From Candidatus Hadarchaeales archaeon (GTDB lineage Archaea; Hadarchaeota; Hadarchaeia; Hadarchaeales; Hadarchaeaceae), in assembly GCA_038851075.1 (NCBI GenBank), contig JAWCLG010000009.1, positions 1-43,154 of the forward strand: 43,154 nt of DNA. Reading direction: 5' to 3'. Positions 23,819 through 33,113 of the stretch are shown one piece after another; position 1 is the first letter of the stretch, and each line of letters opens with the position of its first letter. The notes beneath the pieces were generated by a model. That model was not told the DNA's origin. It searched no databases and worked only from the letters and a program-made list of their open reading frames with translations. The translations under genes were made by a program, and so were the position numbers.

Positions 23819-24391
23819 TCATTTCACGTGTTTGAATCTCCCGTCCAGCGCCTTGACGATCTTTGCCGAGCCCGGAAATTCCCTGAGGTACGGGCTCAGG
23901 TCCTTCAAAACCGCGCTCCAGAGCTCTTTCAGGTCATCGGAGACGTTGCCGCGTTCCCTGTACTTTAACGCCTGGACCATTATCGACAGATAGTCAGCCA
24001 TGTGGACGAGCTTGGCCTCGGCGGTCTTGCCATCCCGGTACTCCCTCCACAGCTCCATGTATCTGTCTGAGGATTTCGTGCCGGCGACGAGGTCTTTCAT
24101 CGCGCTTTCCTCGGCCCTCTCCTTTTCCACACGTTCGATGTGCTTTCTTGCAGGATATGGTATATCCCCGATGAGCGTCTCTGGCCAGTCATGTAAGATT
24201 GCCATGGAAAGCGCGCGTTTGAGGTCGATGTTTTTTATCGCCAGCTCCCCGGAAAGCAGCAGCGTCATCGCGGCAACGTCGAAGCTGTGCTGCGCGACAT
24301 CCTCAACCTCACCCAGCGGAATACCGCACAGGAGCCATCCGGTCCTCGGGATCAGCTTCAGTCTGTTCAGTTTTTCCAGAAGGTCATCCAT
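23819..24391 (-). CDS. HD-domain hydrolase (YfbR/HDDC2-like 5'-deoxynucleotidase)
   Basis: LKLIPRTGW, EDVAQHSF, LHDWPE..IGDIP, AD.L. Confidence 0.88.
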   Translation of the reverse strand: MDDLLEKLNRLKLIPRTGWLLCGIPLGEVEDVAQHSFDVAAMTLLLSGELAIKNIDLKRALSMAILHDWPETLIGDIPYPARKHIERVEKERAEESAMKDLVAGTKSSDRYMELWREYRDGKTAEAKLVHMADYLSIMVQALKYRERGNVSDDLKELWSAVLKDLSPYLREFPGSAKIVKALDGRFKHVK

Positions 24392-24795
24392 CACACCACC
24401 ATCAGCTTCGCGGTTTCGACCCCTCTGAGAGACCCAAGGCGCTCGTGCAGCTTCTTTATCGTGGCTCCCGGCCCCTGCACGATCAGCGCCTCAAGGCACC
24501 TCTCATCATCAACGTGTAAATGCTGGACCGACTTTATCACCTCGTGGCAGTCGTGCTGTATGTCGATCAGCGAGTCTGCGAGTCCCCTCACGTCGTGTCT
24601 GTACATTATCATGATCGCCCCGAGCTGTTTTCCTCTCAGCTTTCTGCGCCATCTGTAAGCCGCCAGAAATTCTCTGAGCGCATCCCTGATGGCCTCGGAT
24701 CTGCTCGCGTAGCCCTGATCCTTCAGCGAGACGTCCAGCTCCTCAAGCAGCTCCTCCGGCAGAGTCAGGCTCATCCTAGTTATCTTTTCCGGCAT
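24391..24795 (-). CDS. nikR: Nickel-responsive regulator NikR
   Basis: RHH domain RMSLTLPEELL...SRSEAIRDA; Ni site QHDCH...QHLH...CLE intact. Confidence 0.93.
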   Translation of the reverse strand: MPEKITRMSLTLPEELLEELDVSLKDQGYASRSEAIRDALREFLAAYRWRRKLRGKQLGAIMIMYRHDVRGLADSLIDIQHDCHEVIKSVQHLHVDDERCLEALIVQGPGATIKKLHERLGSLRGVETAKLMVV

Positions 24796-24813: not shown

Positions 24814-25527
24814 TCACACGATCCTTTTCAATATTTCATTGAGTGCTCTGGAAAACCTGGTCCTCAGAATTCTTTCGGGCCGTCCGATGCATTCTTCCAG
24901 CTCAGCGTCGAACGGAATCGATCCAAGGCAGGGGGCTCCGAGATCTCCGGGTTTTCCGGCGTCATCCATGTTGCTGATGATCCCGAGCAGTGTGCTTCCA
25001 GAATCCCTGAGTACGCGGACCACCTTTTGCGCAGACTTCACAGCTAGGGGTGAGGGAGTGGTGATCACGAGGAACTCCGTTCTGTTGATTAGCCTCACGA
25101 GGTCCAGAAACTCATCGCCTATCCCCGGAGGCGCGTCGACTATGAGCAGGTCGAGCCCGCCCCATCTCGTCACGGTGAGCATCTCTGTGAACGCGTCTGA
25201 GACTTCCCTGCCCTCGAGCGGCAGCGGCATGTCTCCGGAGAAGTGGACCACCGACATCAGCCTCACACCGCTGACGGCCGGAGGGATTAGTCCCCTGTCC
25301 TCTGCGGGTTTTTCGTCACGGGCCCCCAGGATGAGGTGAAGACACGGGGACTGGAAGTCCAGGTCAAGAAGTCCAACCCTCTTTCCGGATTTTGCGAGAT
25401 GCAGCGCAGCCGTCGCAGAGATGACGCTTTTTCCGACTCCTCCCTTTCCGCTGACAACAGCGATTATCCTCCTCACATCCCTAAGGGAGTCGTCTATTGA
25501 TGGTGGTCTCGGGTCCAGCCTATTCAC
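24814..25527 (-). CDS. hypB: Mrp/MinD-family ATPase, ATPase-type HypB (Thermococcales type)
   Basis: MNRLDPR..., SGKGGVGKS, DLD, DAPPGIGDE; lacks the CxxC of Fe-S carrier Mrp after NM; GTGA overlap with hypA. Confidence 0.75.
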   Translation of the reverse strand: MNRLDPRPPSIDDSLRDVRRIIAVVSGKGGVGKSVISATAALHLAKSGKRVGLLDLDFQSPCLHLILGARDEKPAEDRGLIPPAVSGVRLMSVVHFSGDMPLPLEGREVSDAFTEMLTVTRWGGLDLLIVDAPPGIGDEFLDLVRLINRTEFLVITTPSPLAVKSAQKVVRVLRDSGSTLLGIISNMDDAGKPGDLGAPCLGSIPFDAELEECIGRPERILRTRFSRALNEILKRIV

Positions 25528-25925
25528 TCCGATACCTCTATTCTCTCCACCCATATTCCTCTCCCTCCGGTGATTTCAAAGTCCGGCCCCCCGCACGAGG
25601 GACATCTGATGAATGCGTGCGCCACTTCCGGTATGAAGTGAATCGCCTCGGCCTCGTCGGGGTCGAGCTTCTTTCGGTCCATTTTCCACTCCTCTCCGCA
25701 CCTTCTGCACCTGAATGCGGCCTCGACTTTAGCGAACTTCCACTTCGCGCCCTCAAGAATGGTTTTTCTCGAAAGCTCCCCAATGGCCAGCAGCATGGCG
25801 TTCTCGTCCAGTTCCTGCAGTTCACCGACCGCCACCTCGACGCTTTTAACGCCGGAGGCGCCGGCTTCGGCGGCCACCTTGATCACTGTCGAGACGACTG
25901 CCCTTGCAAGTGCCCACTCGTGCAT
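25524..25925 (-). CDS. hypA: Hydrogenase nickel metallochaperone HypA
   Basis: MHEWALA, CRRC...AIHFIPE...CPSC, GGRG. Confidence 0.94.
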   Translation of the reverse strand: MHEWALARAVVSTVIKVAAEAGASGVKSVEVAVGELQELDENAMLLAIGELSRKTILEGAKWKFAKVEAAFRCRRCGEEWKMDRKKLDPDEAEAIHFIPEVAHAFIRCPSCGGPDFEITGGRGIWVERIEVSE

Positions 25926-25967: not shown

Positions 25968-26930
25968 TCAGAGCCTCTCCAGAAGGGCCCCCGTCATCAC
26001 GGGCAGCAGCAGTGTGGCATCCCCCTCGACCGTGATGTGTCTCGCGCGTTCCCTGATTTTTCCCCAGGATATGGCCTCTCGAGTCCTGGCGCCGCTCAGG
26101 CTTCCGTCCCACTCGGGCGCGGTCGTGATGTATACCGCATAGTCCAGCCCGCCCTTGAACTGGTTCCACCAGATGACGTGATGCTTGCTTATCCCGCCCC
26201 CGATTATCAGGGCCCCGGAGCGCTTCGCACCGAAAACAAGGTCTGCAAGTTCCTGCTGGTCCTCGAACTCGTTGATTCCGAATTCTCTGTGCGTCTGCCA
26301 GAACAGCCAGAGCTGCGATCCCACTGCACCGTCAAATATTCCCGGTATGTAAACCGGTACCTTCTTCCTCCACGCCCACCTGAGTATGGAATCTCTGCCG
26401 GCTCTCCTTCCCAGCTCCCATGCGAGCTCTCTGGTCGAAATACTTCTTTTTCCCATCCTCCACAGCTCGTTCAGGACCGGCTGTATCTTTTCCTCGAGCA
26501 CAATTCCGTAGTTCTTCATTGGAACGAAGACGTTGCCTATCCTGTGTATCCCGGCCCGGTGCAGCTCCACGTCGTCCACGTCGAAGTCTCCGTGATGGTA
26601 TGTCGCCCAGGATCTTGCGAGGTCATGATCGAGCGTTCCGCAGGTCGTCACTATCACATCGATAAGCCTCTCCTTCACGAGCGTTCTGATAACTCCCCTG
26701 CATCCAGTCGCGATTATGCATGCCGGAAATGATAGAAACTTCAGGCACCCTCTGTCGCGCACCATTGCCTCGAGGAGGTCAACGGCCTCACCGGTCTTTT
26801 TTGCCACGAATCCGCCAGATCCCGCCATCTCCCTGGCCAGTCCGTCCAGACGCATCCCGCGTTTGACGGATATGTCCCTCACGGGGGGACCGAGCAGCCT
26901 GCCGCCTTTCCTTGTTCTCTTTACATTCAA
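25968..26930 (-). CDS. dys: Deoxyhypusine synthase
   Basis: TTCGTLDHD, RIGNVFVP, GGGISKHH, WDGSLSGA..REAISWGK (catalytic Lys). Confidence 0.88.
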   Translation of the reverse strand: MNVKRTRKGGRLLGPPVRDISVKRGMRLDGLAREMAGSGGFVAKKTGEAVDLLEAMVRDRGCLKFLSFPACIIATGCRGVIRTLVKERLIDVIVTTCGTLDHDLARSWATYHHGDFDVDDVELHRAGIHRIGNVFVPMKNYGIVLEEKIQPVLNELWRMGKRSISTRELAWELGRRAGRDSILRWAWRKKVPVYIPGIFDGAVGSQLWLFWQTHREFGINEFEDQQELADLVFGAKRSGALIIGGGISKHHVIWWNQFKGGLDYAVYITTAPEWDGSLSGARTREAISWGKIRERARHITVEGDATLLLPVMTGALLERL

Positions 26931-26934
26931 GGGT

Positions 26935-27945
26935 TCATTCCCCGAAAAGCCATGAAAAGTCAGGAGAGCTTTTTCTTGGCTTCGCCCTCTCCTTCAGAGA
27001 GTGCGATACCAGCGGCAGCGCTATAGTGGCGTCGCAGTAGCACACAACGTTCTTTCCGGTCGCTGAGATCTTTCCCCAGCTGACCGCCTCCTGGAAGGTG
27101 CATCCGCTGAGCCCTCCCCACTGCGGCGAGTCTGCGGTGATCTGTATGGCGTATTCGTGGGGGTAGGGAACCTCTCCTCCCCTCATGAGGTCGATGGCCA
27201 CAGCAAGCAGCTGAGTGAAGTCCTTAGGGACGCCTCCGCCGATGTAGACCACTCCAGTCCTCTTGGCCCTCTCGCCGATCTTCACGAATTCCCTAAAGTC
27301 CTCCATCTGATCGATTCTGACGATCTTTCCCTCCTTCTGGGCCTCAACAGCGGCTATGCCGTAACCGCTGTCCACGATGGCGGGGCAGAAGATCGGGACC
27401 TTCTTCCGGGCCGCGGTGGATACTATGCACTTTATTCCCTTCTTCCACAGCCAGTTTCCGAAGAGGTAAAGGAACTCCCGTGATGAGTAGGGGCGGTCCT
27501 CGAGCGTCATCATGAACTCCTTTATCAGTCTTTCCATCTGGCGGTACTCCAGCTCGTCGGCGTAGACGTCGTAGAACCTGTCTATCTTGTGCTTCAGCAG
27601 ATCCGCGTCATCAACGAACGGAGATCCCTTCCAGTAGGTTCCACCCATGGCTTCCAGCAGGTCCTCAGATATGTTGGCGCCGGTTGAGACCAGAATGTCC
27701 ACGTATCTATTCTCGATGAGCCAGCAGACGATCTTCCACATGCCCGTCGTGCTCATCGATCCCGCGTAACCCATTATTATTGTGAGGTCCTTTTCTCCGA
27801 TCATCTCCTCCCATACCTTAGCCGCCTCACCGAGCTTTCTGCCCTGGAATCCGGTGTCGGCCATCTCGGAGAGAAGCTGTGATATGCTCTTGTCCTTCAC
27901 CTCTATCGTCTTCATCTTTTCCTTGAAGTAAGGCGTCTTCCTCAC
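26935..27945 (-). CDS. Second deoxyhypusine synthase-family paralog
   Basis: GFQGRKLG, STGANI, FCPAIVDS, GGGVPKDF, QWGGLSGCTFQEAVSWGK, DATIALP. Confidence 0.88.
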   Translation of the reverse strand: MRKTPYFKEKMKTIEVKDKSISQLLSEMADTGFQGRKLGEAAKVWEEMIGEKDLTIIMGYAGSMSTTGMWKIVCWLIENRYVDILVSTGANISEDLLEAMGGTYWKGSPFVDDADLLKHKIDRFYDVYADELEYRQMERLIKEFMMTLEDRPYSSREFLYLFGNWLWKKGIKCIVSTAARKKVPIFCPAIVDSGYGIAAVEAQKEGKIVRIDQMEDFREFVKIGERAKRTGVVYIGGGVPKDFTQLLAVAIDLMRGGEVPYPHEYAIQITADSPQWGGLSGCTFQEAVSWGKISATGKNVVCYCDATIALPLVSHSLKERAKPRKSSPDFSWLFGE

Positions 27946-28034: not shown

Positions 28035-28062
28035 GTAATATTTATATATCAAAAAATATTAC
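28035..28062. promoter_or_regulatory. Candidate NikR operator GTAATA-N16-TATTAC enclosing the TATA box TTTATATA (28041-28048)
   Basis: Perfect 9-bp inverted repeat GTAATATTT/AAATATTAC; 6-16-6 geometry as in the E. coli NikR site GTATGA-N16-TCATAC; nikR about 3.2 kb away. Confidence 0.7.
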
Positions 28063-28078
28063 CCTGATGGGTGATAAA

Positions 28079-28432
28079 ATAGCGTGCTTTCTTGTCCCGA
28101 TGGCGCTCGGCATAGCGACCGTCCTTCTGTACAGAAAGTTCCCGAAGAGCCTCCACGCTGGATGGCTTAACGCGCTACTCTGGGGAGGAACTCTCATGCT
28201 CATGGTAGAACACATTGCGCACGGTGAGATAGTGCTTTACCCACCGTTCCTGACGGCGGGGCTCGCCGATGTCCTGCCAGAGATGCTCAGCGTGGGAGTT
28301 CCTATGATGATGGTGAATGTCGGGATATGGTCTGCGATGGTTCTGATAAGCAGCAGGATGGCGAGGAAGTCGGAATTCGCTTCGAGGGGCATCGGTGCGA
28401 GGACGGGTGTATTTAGAAAAAAAGTGATCTGA
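28079..28432 (+). CDS. Small 3-TM membrane protein A (candidate nickel transporter subunit)
   Basis: (M)ACFLVP..., LLWGGTLMLMVEHIAHG; start probably ATA 28079 after GGTGAT, alternatively ATG 28067. Confidence 0.75.
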   Translation: MACFLVPMALGIATVLLYRKFPKSLHAGWLNALLWGGTLMLMVEHIAHGEIVLYPPFLTAGLADVLPEMLSVGVPMMMVNVGIWSAMVLISSRMARKSEFASRGIGARTGVFRKKVI

Positions 28433-28433
28433 G

Positions 28434-28739
28434 ATGTGGCTGGTCACAACACTGGTGGCGGCTGCAGCTGCCACGGTCGCATGGGGGCTATCCTCAAGTG
28501 GGTTCAGACGGAGCTGGAGGCTCAGCACGCTCGCTTTGATGCTATGGGGAGCTACGGTCATGATATTCATAGATCACATTTTGGGATATGGTGGCGGAGA
28601 ATTCCTTGAGTTCACAACCGAGGGATCAATCAACAGTGGAGCGCTGCTCGGTGCAGTCATGCTGGTGCCAGTTTTTGCGGTCTGGGGCGCTTTGGTGCTG
28701 ATAGCTAGGTTTCGCTCCAGCGGGCACAGGACACTTTGA
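28434..28739 (+). CDS. Small 3-TM membrane protein B, paralog of A
   Basis: MLWGATVMIFIDHILGY aligns with protein A; 1-nt gap after the stop of A. Confidence 0.75.
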   Translation: MWLVTTLVAAAAATVAWGLSSSGFRRSWRLSTLALMLWGATVMIFIDHILGYGGGEFLEFTTEGSINSGALLGAVMLVPVFAVWGALVLIARFRSSGHRTL

Positions 28740-28803: not shown

Positions 28804-29067
28804 ATGAGCATGTCAGCTGAAAAGAGGCTAGTTGGTAGGGTAACCCACTACTTCACCAAGATCGGTGTAGCCGTGGTGGAGCTCAGCGACACGGTTTCTG
28901 TCGGGGACAGGATATCAATAGAGGGGGCGACGACCAACATACAGCAGACCGTGGAGTCCATGCAGATTGAGCACAACAACGTGAAAACCGCGAACGCCGG
29001 TGAGTCGATAGGTCTGAAGGTGAAGGACCGCGTCCGTGAAGGGGACATGGTCTACAAAATCTCCTGA
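28804..29067 (+). CDS. Small beta-barrel protein (EF-Tu domain II / U32 C-terminal-like)
   Basis: VGRVTHYFTKIGVAVVEL...VGDRI...SMQIEH...GLKV..RVREGD.VY. Confidence 0.8.
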   Translation: MSMSAEKRLVGRVTHYFTKIGVAVVELSDTVSVGDRISIEGATTNIQQTVESMQIEHNNVKTANAGESIGLKVKDRVREGDMVYKIS

Positions 29068-29174: not shown

Positions 29175-30230
29175 ATGCTGGGAGGTAAAAAGACACGCGT
29201 GGTGGAAAAACGGGATTTCTCCGAGCTCATAGCCCGCATCATATCCTCCGGGACAGATGTGTACGCGCCCGTGAGGCAGGAGAACGGTGCCAATTTCAAG
29301 AGGATAAAATCAGTTGACGATGTCGTGTGGGGCAGGCCGCAGACCGTGATACCCCCCAAGTTCTTGATGTTTCCCCAGTCCGAAACGCTGTTAAAGTACG
29401 AGACGGACGGCGGGGTGAGCGTTTCACCCGTTGTGGAGTCCAGGCCGGCCGTGCTTCTCGGCGCCCACCCCTGCGACATCAACGCGATATTTCTGCTCGA
29501 TAAAGTGTTCTCTGAGAAGAACGTGGATGAGAACTATGTCAGGCGGAGGGAAAACGTGACGATAGTCGGGGTCGAGTGCCTGGAGCCGTGCTCGAATGAA
29601 TCGTTCTGCTCAAGGAAGGATTCGGCCATGCCCTGGGGCGGATACGACCTTTTCCTCACGGACATCGGTGACAGGTTTTACGTTGAGATAGGCACGAAGA
29701 AGGGCGAAACGTTTCTCGCCGGTTCCGGGAGAAAGCCGAGCGGAGATGAGAAGAGAAGATTGAAGATACAGAGGGAGAAAAAGGACAGGCTCTTCGACAG
29801 GAGACAGAAGAAGCTTAAGCCCGAGCTGAAGGATCTTCCGAAACTTCTGCGTGAGAGGTACGACAGTGAGGTCTGGAGGAAACGTGGCGAGAGGTGTCTC
29901 AGCTGCGGGTCCTGCAACATTGTGTGCCCGACCTGTTACTGTTTTGACGTTAGGGACTGTCTCGACCTCAACCTAAGAAACGGTGAGAGGTTCAGGAGCT
30001 GGGACGGGTGCATGCTCACCGATTTTACCAGGGTGGCCTCGGGTGAGGTATTCCGCGAGGACAGGGGGGCAAGGCTCAGGCACAGGACCAACAGAAAAGA
30101 CCTGTACCTGTTCGAGAAGTGGAAAAGAACGTTCTGCACCGGTTGCGGGAGGTGCAACACAGCCTGCCTCACCAAGATAGTAAGCCCGCTAGAGATAGAG
30201 AACGAGCTGTACGCGGAGGCCAGAAAATGA
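29175..30230 (+). CDS. hydB: Group 3b [NiFe]-hydrogenase beta subunit (Fe-S)
   Basis: HPCD, CLSCGSCNIVCPTCYCF, CTGCGRCNTAC. Confidence 0.9.
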   Translation: MLGGKKTRVVEKRDFSELIARIISSGTDVYAPVRQENGANFKRIKSVDDVVWGRPQTVIPPKFLMFPQSETLLKYETDGGVSVSPVVESRPAVLLGAHPCDINAIFLLDKVFSEKNVDENYVRRRENVTIVGVECLEPCSNESFCSRKDSAMPWGGYDLFLTDIGDRFYVEIGTKKGETFLAGSGRKPSGDEKRRLKIQREKKDRLFDRRQKKLKPELKDLPKLLRERYDSEVWRKRGERCLSCGSCNIVCPTCYCFDVRDCLDLNLRNGERFRSWDGCMLTDFTRVASGEVFREDRGARLRHRTNRKDLYLFEKWKRTFCTGCGRCNTACLTKIVSPLEIENELYAEARK

Positions 30231-31042
30231 CTTCATACGTGCCGGAAATCGCCAGAATAACTAAGGTCGAGGAGCTCACGGGAACAGAGAAGCTCTTCGG
30301 CGTAGAGCTGCAGTCTGGAAGAAAATTAGATTACAGTCCGGGACAGTTCGTTGAGGTGTCCGTCTTCGGCGTCGGTGAGGCGCCAATATCCATATCCTCC
30401 GCACCATCCGGGGGTTCTGAGTTCGAGCTCTGCGTGAGAGCCATAGGAAACGTAACCGGTGCGCTTCACAGGAAGAAGGCCGGGGACCTCATAGGCATAA
30501 GGGGTCCGTTCGGGCGCGGTTTTGACCTGAGGGACTTTAAGGGAAAGGACGTGCTTTTCATAGCGGGAGGGCTCGGGCTGGCTCCGCTTAGGTCCCTCAT
30601 CTGGTCGGTCCTGAACTCAAGGAAGAACTTCAGAGAGGTGTTCATTCTTTACGGGGCAAGGAGGCCTCAGGAGCTGCTCTTCAGGAACGAGCTGGAGATG
30701 TGGGAGAAAAGGGATGATGTGAAATACCTTGTGACAGTTGATGTTGCGGACGAGACCTGGAAGGGAAATGTGGGGGTGATAACGACGCTGATACCTCAGG
30801 TTGAGTTCAATCCAAAAAGGACCCGTGCGGTGATAGTCGGTCCGCCGATCATGTACAGGTTTGTGATAAAGTCACTCAAGGAGAGAGGAATGCCCGATGA
30901 GAACATATGGATGTCGCTAGAGAGGAAGATGAAGTGCGGCCTTGGAAAGTGTGGGCACTGTCAGATGAACCACCTTTACGTGTGCCAGGACGGTCCGGTG
31001 TTCAGGTACGACGAGGTGAATGAAATCCCGGAGGCGATATGA
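30227..31042 (+). CDS. hydG: Group 3b hydrogenase gamma subunit (FAD/NAD(P), 2Fe-2S)
   Basis: PGQFV, GEAPIS, RGPFGRGF, AGGLGLAP, ERKMKCGLGKCGHC...CQDGP; ATGA overlap. Confidence 0.92.
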   Translation: MTSYVPEIARITKVEELTGTEKLFGVELQSGRKLDYSPGQFVEVSVFGVGEAPISISSAPSGGSEFELCVRAIGNVTGALHRKKAGDLIGIRGPFGRGFDLRDFKGKDVLFIAGGLGLAPLRSLIWSVLNSRKNFREVFILYGARRPQELLFRNELEMWEKRDDVKYLVTVDVADETWKGNVGVITTLIPQVEFNPKRTRAVIVGPPIMYRFVIKSLKERGMPDENIWMSLERKMKCGLGKCGHCQMNHLYVCQDGPVFRYDEVNEIPEAI

Positions 31043-31782
31043 TGAAGCCAAAGGTCGGATTCTTTGACTTCGCCTGCTGCGAGGGTTGCCAGCTGACCGT
31101 GCTGTCTGTTGGCGAAAGGCTGTTGGATCTGGTTAACTCGGTAGATATAGTCAACTTCAGGGAAGCGTCGAGTTTCATCGGTCACGACTACGACATAGCT
31201 TTCATAGAGGGGTCGGTTGCAAAGCCCGCAGATATAGACAGGCTCAAGGAAATCAGGAGAAATGCGAAGATATGCGTTGCTCTCGGGGCATGCGCACACA
31301 CCGCCGGAGTAAACGCGATAAGGAACTTTCACAATCAGGCCGAGGTGAAGAAGAGGGTCTACGGTGATAAGGCATGGGTTTTCGATACGGTCCTCGCGCA
31401 GCCGATCGACGCGGTGATAAAGGTTGAATACTTCATACCGGGCTGTCCGATAGACAAGGACGAGCTGCTCAGGGTCATACCGGCAATAGCAAGCGGGGTC
31501 AGGCCATACATACCGGATCATCCGGTCTGTGTCGAGTGCAAGATGAAGGGCAACGTGTGTCTTTACCACAAGCCGAACAAGATCATCTGTATGGGTCCGA
31601 TCACGAGGGCTGGGTGCGGTGCCATATGCACATCAGCCGGAAACGCGTGTGAGGGCTGCAGGGGCCTTGTCTCCGATCCAAACACAAGGGCTTTCGAGGA
31701 AGTTCTTGATGAGCACGGGGTTTCTCTTGAGGACAGGATCAGATTCTACAGAATGTACAACGGGCTGATGGGGGTGAGGTGA
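31039..31782 (+). CDS. hydD: Group 3b hydrogenase delta (small) subunit
   Basis: CCEGC, EGSV, GACA, PGCP, CVEC, CMGP...C...CEGCRG. Confidence 0.92.
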   Translation: MMKPKVGFFDFACCEGCQLTVLSVGERLLDLVNSVDIVNFREASSFIGHDYDIAFIEGSVAKPADIDRLKEIRRNAKICVALGACAHTAGVNAIRNFHNQAEVKKRVYGDKAWVFDTVLAQPIDAVIKVEYFIPGCPIDKDELLRVIPAIASGVRPYIPDHPVCVECKMKGNVCLYHKPNKIICMGPITRAGCGAICTSAGNACEGCRGLVSDPNTRAFEEVLDEHGVSLEDRIRFYRMYNGLMGVR

Positions 31783-33113
31783 TGAACGGAAAGGACGTTG
31801 AAATAAATGTTCACCACGTGACGAGGGTTGAGGGGCACGGAAACATAGTGGTCGACGTGAAGAACGGTGAGCTGAAGGAGGTCAGGCTCGACATAGTCGA
31901 GTCTCCCAGGTTCTTCGAGGCGATGTTGTCGGGCAGACGCTTTCCGGAGGCGGTCCACATCACGAGCAGGATATGCGGGATATGCGCTGTCTCACACACC
32001 CACGCCTCCGTGAGGGCACTTGAGGACGCGCTCGGCATAAAACCGACACAGCAGACCGAGGCCCTCAGGAGGGTGCTGACAGCGGCGGAGATGCTGGACT
32101 CACACGCACTGCACGCCTTCATGCTGGCGGCACCGGACTTTTTCAACGTGCCCTCAGTAATACCGCTTGCGTCCACCGCCCCGGAGGTGGTGAAGATGGC
32201 GATAAGGATGAAGAAGCTCGCGCACGATGTATGCGACGCGATCGCCGGGCGCCATACGCATCCGATCTCAATAGCGATTGACGGGTTCACGAGCCTGGTC
32301 ACGGAGGAGCAGCTGAAATCAATGCTCGGCAAGGTTAAGGAGATGATAAGGGAGGATGTGCCGAGGATGATCGACTTCTTCGCTGGATTGAAGTTCCCAG
32401 ACTTTGAGAGAAAGACCGACTACACCTCCCTCACAAGCAGGAGCGAGTACGCAATGTACGATGGCATAATACGTTCTTCGGAGACAGGAGAGTACAAGCA
32501 CAGGGATTACAGGATGAAGATATCAGAGCGAGTGATGGACCACTCGACCGCCAAGCACGCCATGGGGCCACACAGGCCCTACATGGTGGGCGCGTTGTCG
32601 AGGCTCAACAACAACTTTAATCAGCTGACTCCCGGAGCCAGGGAAGCAGCTGAGAGGCTCGGGCTCAGAGTCCCTGTTCACAACCCGTTTAAGATAACTC
32701 TGGCCCAGGTGGTTGAAATTGTTCACTGCCTGGAGTGGATGTCTTCACTGATCGAGGATCTCCTGGCGACCGGGATAAAGGACGAGCGTGCTGAGAGACC
32801 GCCCATATCCGGATGGTCCGCCAAGTTGCCGAAGGTCAACAGGTGCTGGGGAGTTGGGGTGACCGAGGCTCCGAGGGGGCTACTTGTGCACGAGTATCGC
32901 ATAAACAAAGATGGACTGATCGAATCCGCTAACTGCGTGATCCCCACCGCCCAGAATCTGGCGAACATTGAGGCGGACATGAGAGAACTCGTTCCGCTGA
33001 TCGTGGACAGGCCCAAGGATGAGATAAGGTTGATGCTTGAGATGCTGGTTAGGGCATACGATCCGTGCATATCTTGTTCAACGCATATGCTGGAGGTGAA
33101 GTTGGTTGAGTAA
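31779..33113 (+). CDS. hydA: Group 3b [NiFe]-hydrogenase alpha (large) subunit
   Basis: RVEGHG, RICGICAVSH, EAPRG, DPCISCSTH plus a cleavable tail. Confidence 0.95.
   Translation: MMNGKDVEINVHHVTRVEGHGNIVVDVKNGELKEVRLDIVESPRFFEAMLSGRRFPEAVHITSRICGICAVSHTHASVRALEDALGIKPTQQTEALRRVLTAAEMLDSHALHAFMLAAPDFFNVPSVIPLASTAPEVVKMAIRMKKLAHDVCDAIAGRHTHPISIAIDGFTSLVTEEQLKSMLGKVKEMIREDVPRMIDFFAGLKFPDFERKTDYTSLTSRSEYAMYDGIIRSSETGEYKHRDYRMKISERVMDHSTAKHAMGPHRPYMVGALSRLNNNFNQLTPGAREAAERLGLRVPVHNPFKITLAQVVEIVHCLEWMSSLIEDLLATGIKDERAERPPISGWSAKLPKVNRCWGVGVTEAPRGLLVHEYRINKDGLIESANCVIPTAQNLANIEADMRELVPLIVDRPKDEIRLMLEMLVRAYDPCISCSTHMLEVKLVE

Follow-up and report, generated by a model that had tools for sequence, protein, structure and literature searches.

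A conserved pair of three-helix membrane proteins under a putative NikR operator in Hadarchaeales is a candidate nickel importer

[NiFe]-hydrogenases, CO dehydrogenase, methyl-CoM reductase and urease all require nickel, as does the LarA cofactor. NikM, of the NikMNQO/CbiMNQO systems, is a single seven-helix chain whose N-terminus binds metal, and the stand-alone Ni2+ permeases of the NiCoT (HoxN/NixA, PF03824) and HupE/UreJ (PF04955) families are single chains of eight or six helices, respectively, with acidic-His helix motifs. A published passage predicts that NiCoT is regulated by NikR in some bacteria. NikR signals are inverted repeats: a passage of one study gives the E. coli signal as GTATGA-N16-TCATAC, in the 27–28 bp inverted-repeat class (PMC7055735), and a passage of another gives the delta-proteobacterial signal as GTGTTAC-N13/14-GTAACAC, with half-sites that also occur reversed (PMC545781). 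Here, we analyze a 43,154-nucleotide stretch of DNA from a Candidatus Hadarchaeales archaeon (hereafter the window; contig JAWCLG010000009.1 of assembly GCA_038851075.1), in which an earlier note, made from the sequence alone, had picked out two adjacent genes, A and B, as a possible NikR-repressed nickel transporter. We conclude that A and B probably form a NikR-repressed Ni2+ importer of a new family, independent of an energy-coupling factor (ECF) module. The features of the locus are as follows.

28035–28062, strand not assigned: 28-bp operator, putative NikR box, GTAATATTT-N10-AAATATTAC; full sequence GTAATATTTATATATCAAAAAATATTAC.
28041–28048, + strand: TATA-box-like TTTATATA, inside the operator, predicted from its sequence to act as a TATA box.
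28067–28432, + strand: gene A, 121 amino acids from the ATG at 28067; three-helix membrane protein with motifs WLNALLWGG, VEHIAHGE, YPPFLTAG and LPEM.
28434–28739, + strand: gene B, 101 amino acids; paralog of A with three hydrophobic segments and motifs MWLVTT, MLWGA, IDH and GGxF.

Gene B starts 1 nt past the stop codon of gene A, and the operator ends 4 nt before the ATG of gene A. The two proteins align with each other by BLASTP (30% identity over 74 residues, E 3e-5), recovering the same segments that had been aligned in the earlier note. A hydropathy scan (19-residue span, threshold 1.5) marks three segments in B, as had been claimed for both proteins; in A the scan marks only the first and third segments, and the middle helix (residues 31–52) is placed by an AlphaFold model of A alone (helices 5–23, 31–52 and 66–113; mean pLDDT 67).

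The start of gene A is unusual. Homologs of A begin with M-A-C-F, and the position of their initiator Met is occupied in the window by an ATA (Ile) codon at 28079, which was confirmed in contigs of two DNA runs. The Cys that had been proposed as a metal ligand is conserved as part of this family start, with the window copy differing at the Met. The sequence GGTGAT, which by our reading is Shine-Dalgarno-like, lies 3 nt upstream of the ATA. The sole standard in-frame start is the ATG at 28067, four codons before the ATA; hence, either ATA 28079 serves as the start codon or this copy of A bears a four-residue N-terminal extension. The locus is carried by three DNA runs of one hot-spring study, which may be the source sample, and by no listed RNA run; the contigs assembled from them match the window without differences. 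Short contigs from two runs, X1 and X2, match the window only at 28178–28218, the region from E-H to YPP, with four differences, and then diverge, indicating that a second organism in those samples carries another member of the family.

In Pfam and NCBIfam, no match to A or to B was found at E ≤ 0.1, in agreement with the earlier note, which had not recognized the family, and 34 of the more distant relatives likewise gave no match at a Pfam cut-off. Word-indexed searches recovered 243 relatives for A and 157 for B, and wherever the source gave a name it was "hypothetical protein"; the named carriers in these searches are Hadarchaeales, Omnitrophota and Aenigmatarchaeota. A profile built from 31 homologs of A, run against 1.84 billion representative sequences, matched 379 at E ≤ 1e-3 and 228 at E ≤ 1e-10, the 379 being representatives at 50% identity, and a search with one natural A-B fusion gave at least 2380 relatives. 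The family, as judged from these searches, would thus have hundreds to thousands of members. They occur in Hadarchaeota, Thermoplasmatota, Aenigmatarchaeota, Altiarchaeota and Omnitrophota and, by source names, also in Chloroflexi and Actinobacteria. A search of the ESM Atlas yielded unnamed "hypothetical protein" clusters and nothing else, and a full-text literature search, whose reach did not extend to some of the earlier survey material on Ni/Co transporters and NikR, found no description of the A/B family.

Conservation within the family is concentrated at a small number of positions. Among the 31 homologs of A, residues W39, G40, E48, H49, H52, E54, E72 and M80 never vary, nor does the YPPFLT loop, and M5, A6, C7, F8 and M44 are conserved in at least 90%; among 30 homologs of B, M36, W38, G39, M43, D47 and H48 are invariant. 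The motif W-G-x3-M-x3-[ED]-H is therefore kept in both sets, and the residues proposed from a single sequence as candidate ligands (the shared Met, the Glu/Asp-His, and the N-terminal Cys and extra His of A) all prove to be invariant or at least 90% conserved. A bacterial branch in which helix 1 is followed by a long charged loop (proteins of about 134 residues; hereafter the long-loop branch) retains M1, A2, C3, F4 and the E, H, H, G and E residues without exception. On this pattern, the conserved residues are ones that could bind metal.

A and B occur as a pair across many archaeal and bacterial phyla. In a set of 80 loci, the best 80 of 112 relatives on one-genome-per-species contigs, the two genes are adjacent in 79, with the order B-A in 66, A-B in 13, and A alone in one. 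Nine natural A-B fusions were found, 195–236 amino acids long, most of which consist of the three helices of A followed by helices 2 and 3 of B (five helices), an order that fits a common orientation of both subunits. One fusion (P0392) keeps a MWLLIT-like start of B; it may result from read-through or have six helices, in which case its topology would be problematic. In the fused B halves the Asp is invariant and the His is replaced in several. For these comparisons we kept alignments of fusions with B only, in which the first helix of B is misplaced, and dropped alignments that mixed fusions with both A and B, in which MAFFT set B under the A half. Co-occurrence, adjacency and natural fusion are what would be expected of an obligate heteromer, and they support the heteromer that had been proposed for the two proteins. 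The two-protein picture of three plus three helices is nonetheless incomplete: most of the fusions lack helix 1 of B, and a single-gene form also exists. This form, of about 105 amino acids and without an adjacent paralog, is found in 12 of 22 family-positive Hadarchaeales genomes. It carries the motifs MVCY..., WWLNLLLYGG and VDHLWHGE and is about equally like A and B. The ten single-gene loci compared here (L011–L020) usually lie next to nikR and share the 28-bp operator. The single-gene form is presumably homo-oligomeric, and may be the ancestor of the A/B pair.

Structure prediction gave models of middling confidence. An AlphaFold model of one natural fusion (P0254; mean pLDDT 75.2, pTM 0.57) contains five long helices plus short ones. 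Compared with solved structures, this pLDDT 75 model had a best Foldseek match of E 1.6, with none at or below 0.001, and a best VIA Z of 6.4 that is confined to a 50-residue helical hairpin. Prediction of an A/B complex gave a score of 0.07 against a mark of 0.32, which counts neither for nor against binding.

SdhC and SdhD are likewise two small paralogous three-helix proteins, encoded by adjacent genes, with a His in helix 2, and a hydrogenase cluster adjoins the pair in the window. A haem- or quinone-binding anchor of this type serving the adjacent hydrogenase is nonetheless highly improbable: there is no sequence or Pfam match, the adjacent hydrogenase is of the four-subunit soluble type, and most loci have nikR, rather than an oxidoreductase, beside the pair. 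Moreover, several fusions have lost the His of the B half, and such an anchor would leave both the N-terminal Cys motif and the operator unexplained.

The earlier note described a perfect palindrome, GTAATA-N16-TATTAC, around the TATA box of the operon. This palindrome is present at 28035–28062, with arms that are in fact 9 bp rather than 6 bp long, and the same 28 bp also fit GTAATAT-N14-ATATTAC, the half-sites found in Hadarchaeales. Allowing up to two mismatches, the 6-16-6 pattern matches nowhere else in the window; however, at least one such match was found in 24 of 100 window shuffles, which makes the bare pattern weak by itself. A scan of the whole genome found one perfect copy, and 13 matches with up to two mismatches as compared with 40 for a reversed control. 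These shuffles are what would favor reading the palindrome as a chance feature of an AT-rich promoter ahead of two unrelated small membrane proteins. We consider that reading hardly credible, since the 28-mer is unique in the genome and is retained in relatives: all 10 of the close A/B loci compared, which come from Hadarchaeales of other genera and families, have it immediately before whichever gene of the pair comes first, with TTTATA/TTTAAATA at the equivalent position in every case. The conservation of the 28-mer and the matrix scores described below contradict it.

We built a weight matrix from the A/B operators of nine relatives, leaving the window site out. The window site scores 41.5 bits; over the 2.02 million positions of its own genome, the best score at any other distinct site is 19.9 bits. 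Of ten sister genomes with nikM, nine have a matrix site of 29.3–42.5 bits ahead of that gene, the tenth nikM being preceded by another open reading frame. Of ten loci with the single-gene form, seven have a site of 34.9–42.6 bits ahead of it, and one of the three misses lies at a contig end. Based on these scores, we conclude that the A/B operon, the single-gene form and the nikM operon of Hadarchaeales have one cis-element in common and that, as far as these comparisons go, this element is not a generic promoter. Putative NikR boxes upstream of homologs, which the earlier note had suggested looking for, are thus present in all close orthologous loci. A loose half-site expression matched 32 of 78 upstream regions, against a background of 0.005 per 120 nt; this count is descriptive only, and was superseded by the matrix test because the half-site set had been picked after viewing the data.

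Sites in other phyla connect the element to published NikR signals. In Omnitrophota, the nikR promoter, as predicted from its sequence, has TTGACA followed by GTRYTAC-N13-GTARYAC over the -10 region, and one locus (L067) contains the published consensus GTGTTAC-N13-GTAACAC letter for letter. Omnitrophota members of the family have the delta-proteobacterial NikR consensus itself, in the form given in the passage cited above. Loci from Aenigmatarchaeota and Thermoplasmatota have GTARCAC-N13-(T)TGYTAC between nikR and the pair. As described in the passages cited above, the E. coli and delta-proteobacterial operators resemble the window site in having two half-sites of 6–7 bp about two helical turns apart, a span of 27–28 bp, GT...AC ends, and a position over the promoter of a Ni uptake operon (for A/B, a predicted one). 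The predicted Hadarchaeales site differs in that its GTAATAT/ATATTAC half-sites surround an archaeal TATA box rather than a sigma-70 promoter. Given the geometry of the published signals, the linkage to nikR, and the sites in other phyla, we read the 28-bp element as a putative NikR operator of A/B. Its size and spacing as an inverted repeat, its overlap with the predicted promoter, its conservation upstream of orthologs and of other Ni genes, and the presence of nikR in the genome are the features of a NikR regulon.

The family and NikM appear to replace one another. Of 41 Hadarchaeales genomes, 22 have the family, 10 have CbiM/NikM, nine show neither, and none has both. By our arithmetic, which assumes independence, the hypergeometric probability of zero overlap is ~8e-5; this overstates the exclusion because related genomes are not independent. 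Two genera (g8 and g15) each hold both states, with switches between the family and NikM. A second count covered 41 genomes around one of the Omnitrophota carriers: 5 have the family, 14 have CbiM and, again, none has both (P ~0.11), which is consistent with exclusion and no more. NikR_C is found in 35 of the 41 Hadarchaeales genomes and in 20 of the 22 that are family-positive; nikR lies beside nikM in some (G008, G011, G018 and G024) and beside a family gene in others (G003, G004, G007, G015, G021, G005/G014, G028, G031 and G040). NikMNQO/CbiMNQO systems therefore occupy the same niche, with nikM of sister Hadarchaeales adjoining nikR under the same 28-bp operator. They differ from A/B in showing no sequence similarity and in architecture, A/B being two chains of three helices each that lack any EcfT or ATPase partner. 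The extreme N-terminus is strictly conserved in both systems, as MHIPDG in nikM products and MACF in A, with His in NikM and Cys in A as the N-terminal ligand candidate.

The genome that contains the window (1.01 Mb, 88% complete) has [NiFe]-hydrogenase genes on two contigs, and gave no match to CbiM (PF01891), NicO, CbiQ/EcfT (PF02361), HupE_UreJ or SBP_bac_5 (NikA-type). In the window itself no known family of Ni importer was found, as had been noted from its sequence. NiCoT (PF03824) was found in none of the 41 Hadarchaeales genomes, and 20 of the 22 genomes with the family gave no match to EcfT (PF02361), for which reason we read the system as ECF-independent. NiCoT and HupE/UreJ are the closest functional parallels, in that A/B are likewise proposed to be a stand-alone Ni2+ permease with acidic-His helix motifs; A/B differ from both in having no profile match, two three-helix chains, and the motif W-G-x3-M-x3-[ED]-H.

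The genes around A/B in the window are also connected with nickel. Domain matches place the pair between nikR/hypA/hypB and [NiFe]-hydrogenase genes, as the earlier note had it:

24391–24795, - strand: nikR, ribbon-helix-helix plus NikR_C (NikR_C 1.1e-25; NF002169 152 bits, cut-off 111), the presumed repressor.
24814–25554, - strand: Mrp/MinD-type P-loop ATPase, read as HypB (ParA/NUBPL family, 2.8e-47).
25524–25925, - strand: hypA, Ni metallochaperone of hydrogenase maturation (HypA, 8.4e-26).
25968–26930 and 26935–27945, - strand: tandem deoxyhypusine synthase paralogs (PF01916, E 4.6e-102 and 1.4e-94).
28804–29067, + strand: 87-amino-acid small beta-barrel-like protein (sub-threshold Peptidase_U32_C and EF-Tu domain 2; 26.2 bits, cut-off 28.2).
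29175–33113, + strand: four-gene cytoplasmic [NiFe]-hydrogenase cluster (open reading frames 29175–30230, 30119–31042, 31039–31782 and 31779–33113).

The Mrp/MinD-type ATPase next to hypA is what we take to be the archaeal type of HypB; its putative gene overlaps the end of hypA by 31 nt. In the hydrogenase cluster, the [NiFe] large subunit (31779–33113) matches PF00374 at 31908–32168 and 32571–33086, and the orthologous cluster at another locus (L025) has Fer4_22, NAD_binding_1, Oxidored_q6 and NiFeSe_Hases domains. The same locus also has the deoxyhypusine synthase pair, which in the window sits between hypA and the divergent A/B promoter and probably heads a dhs-dhs-hypA-hypB-nikR-HD operon; a deoxyhypusine synthase gene is near A/B in 7 of the 80 loci. 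The gene for the 87-amino-acid protein is kept downstream of A/B or of the single-gene form in several Hadarchaeales loci (L011, L012, L014, L018, L019 and L025/L034), and its product may be an accessory protein or a cytoplasmic partner.

The metal-related context expected of the homologs was found across the 80-locus set, with at least one Ni-linked neighbor (NikR, HypA/B/F, HycI, [NiFe] large subunit, or LarC/LarB-like) in 53 of 80 loci. The individual neighbors are:

NikR, 45 of 80 loci, within 4.5 kb (divergent upstream in 23, of which 22 within 250 nt; same-strand upstream in 21; downstream in one).
HypF, 9 of 80 loci.
Group-4 [NiFe] large subunit, 7 of 80 loci.
HypA, 4 of 80 loci.
Mrp-type HypB, 4 of 80 loci.
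LarC, 4 of 80 loci.
LarB-like, 4 of 80 loci.
HycI, 3 of 80 loci.

Nine wider Hadarchaeales loci have the pair beside nikR, hypA, hypB, hypE-hypD-hypC or [NiFe]-hydrogenase genes. In Omnitrophota the operon is nikR-porin-B-A, with an OprB-family porin in 19 loci and another outer-membrane barrel in seven. Such operons, with OprB or Phenol_MetA_deg-type barrels, were noted individually at 16 loci and at others. This arrangement suggests that the porin or barrel is a dedicated outer-membrane Ni channel and, since Omnitrophota are diderm, a porin in the same operon fits uptake.

The same neighborhoods bear on whether A/B, even if related to nickel and controlled by NikR, import the metal. They could instead be a membrane protein that binds Ni or hands it off for HypA/HypB, a Ni sensor, or an exporter that NikR controls in some other manner, in line with the direct adjacency of hypA, hypB or hypCDE in several loci, the very small size of the proteins and their lack of an energizing module, and the conserved gene for a small cytoplasmic beta-barrel downstream in Hadarchaeales. 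We think a role of this kind unlikely. The operator is common with nikM and the family never occurs together with NikM, a pattern of replacement rather than addition; the operator lies over the TATA or -10 box, which would imply repression and so be wrong for an exporter; the outer-membrane porin in the operon fits uptake; and the genome containing the window is otherwise without any Ni importer that we could find.

In the long-loop branch the gene context is metal-related but points less clearly to nickel. We took the best 80 of 568 relatives on metagenome contigs, many of them short and 37 with more than 1.5 kb upstream. A Fur-family regulator is the commonest regulator upstream (12 loci), followed by NikR in 6; LarC is found in 4 and LarB-like in 3, and ABC-3, ZnuA and an ATP-binding cassette (ABC) ATPase in 4, 3 and 6 loci, respectively, with FmdE-domain genes also nearby. 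FeoAB/DtxR, ZIP and Fur neighbors recur in the first 80-locus set as well. These contexts suggest that metal specificity may vary between branches, and a regulator of the Nur or Zur kind may control some long-loop members, or these may transport a different metal. They are also what favors reading A/B as a metal importer whose main substrate here is Co2+, Zn2+ or Fe2+, as is the transport of Co besides Ni by CbiM-type systems, described in a published passage. For the window we give that reading only a slim chance: the control element of the window and order is that of the nikR-linked nikM, the neighbors are hyp and [NiFe]-hydrogenase genes with the Ni insertion protein LarC recurring, and the loci examined have no B12 context.

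Those checks suggested in the earlier note that we could carry out all favored its reading. Taken together, comparative genomics gives strong reason to see in A/B a new protein family, and a new architecture, in what is probably a known functional role, Ni uptake; we regard a NikR-repressed, ECF-independent Ni2+ importer as the probable function. Several observations weigh against it. Nine of the 41 Hadarchaeales genomes have neither the family nor NikM, and two family-positive genomes (G017 and G020) have no NikR_C match. Six helices is very small for a permease, and the AlphaFold models of A and of the fusion are no better than middling. The His of B is lost in several fused halves, and A of the window has ATA in place of the initiator Met, such that a free N-terminus, if important, needs an unusual start. 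Lastly, Fur is ahead of NikR in the long-loop branch, and ZnuA/ABC-3, FeoAB/DtxR and ZIP neighbors are found.

If A/B import Ni2+, A and B would be the two subunits of a small uptake permease without an ABC or ECF energizing module. The positive charges of loop 1 and of the C-terminal tails suggest that both subunits have the N-terminus outside and the C-terminus inside. Helix 2 of each subunit would then run from a cytoplasmic W-L-N / L-x-L-M-L-W-G end to an outer [E/D]-H end, which A extends to E-H-x2-H-G-E on the same outer face as its N-terminal (M)-A-C-F. These ends could together make up a Ni2+ capture site that faces outward, on a pseudo-symmetric bundle of 3+3 helices, with the conserved Met, Glu and Pro of the loop and helix 3 lining an inward path. 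In combining an N-terminal amine with a Cys at position 2 or 3, such a site would resemble the Ni hook of NiSOD and the metal site at the N-terminus of NikM. Once cytoplasmic Ni is sufficient, a Ni-NikR tetramer would bind both operator half-sites and turn transcription off, with the bound repressor over the TATA box blocking access of TBP/TFB. An operator placed over the TATA box in archaea, or over the -10 region in Omnitrophota, is what leads us to propose that Ni-NikR represses, as suits an importer.

A more far-reaching proposal, which we put forward tentatively and with some doubt, is that A/B represent a seventh class of prokaryotic Ni importer, structurally unrelated to the others and the smallest of them, with two pseudo-symmetric three-helix subunits and no ATPase. 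Capture at the outer face would be by the free N-terminus of A (the amine, amide and thiolate of (M)-A-C; NiSOD-hook/ATCUN-like, and converging on the NikM site), with E-H-x2-H-G-E and D-H completing the site. The known forms might then be a series from a single-gene homo-oligomer, through a paralogous pair, to a five-helix fusion, and the class could close the "Ni enzymes but no Ni transporter" gap that many uncultured archaea and bacteria present.

If the reading of A/B as a Ni2+ importer is correct, it would supply the missing Ni importer of these uncultured archaea and bacteria, add a new minimal transporter architecture, and define the NikR box of Hadarchaeales. It would also be readily testable, with two genes of about 100 codons each and clear point mutants, and would allow better metabolic reconstruction of hydrogen-cycling uncultured lineages.

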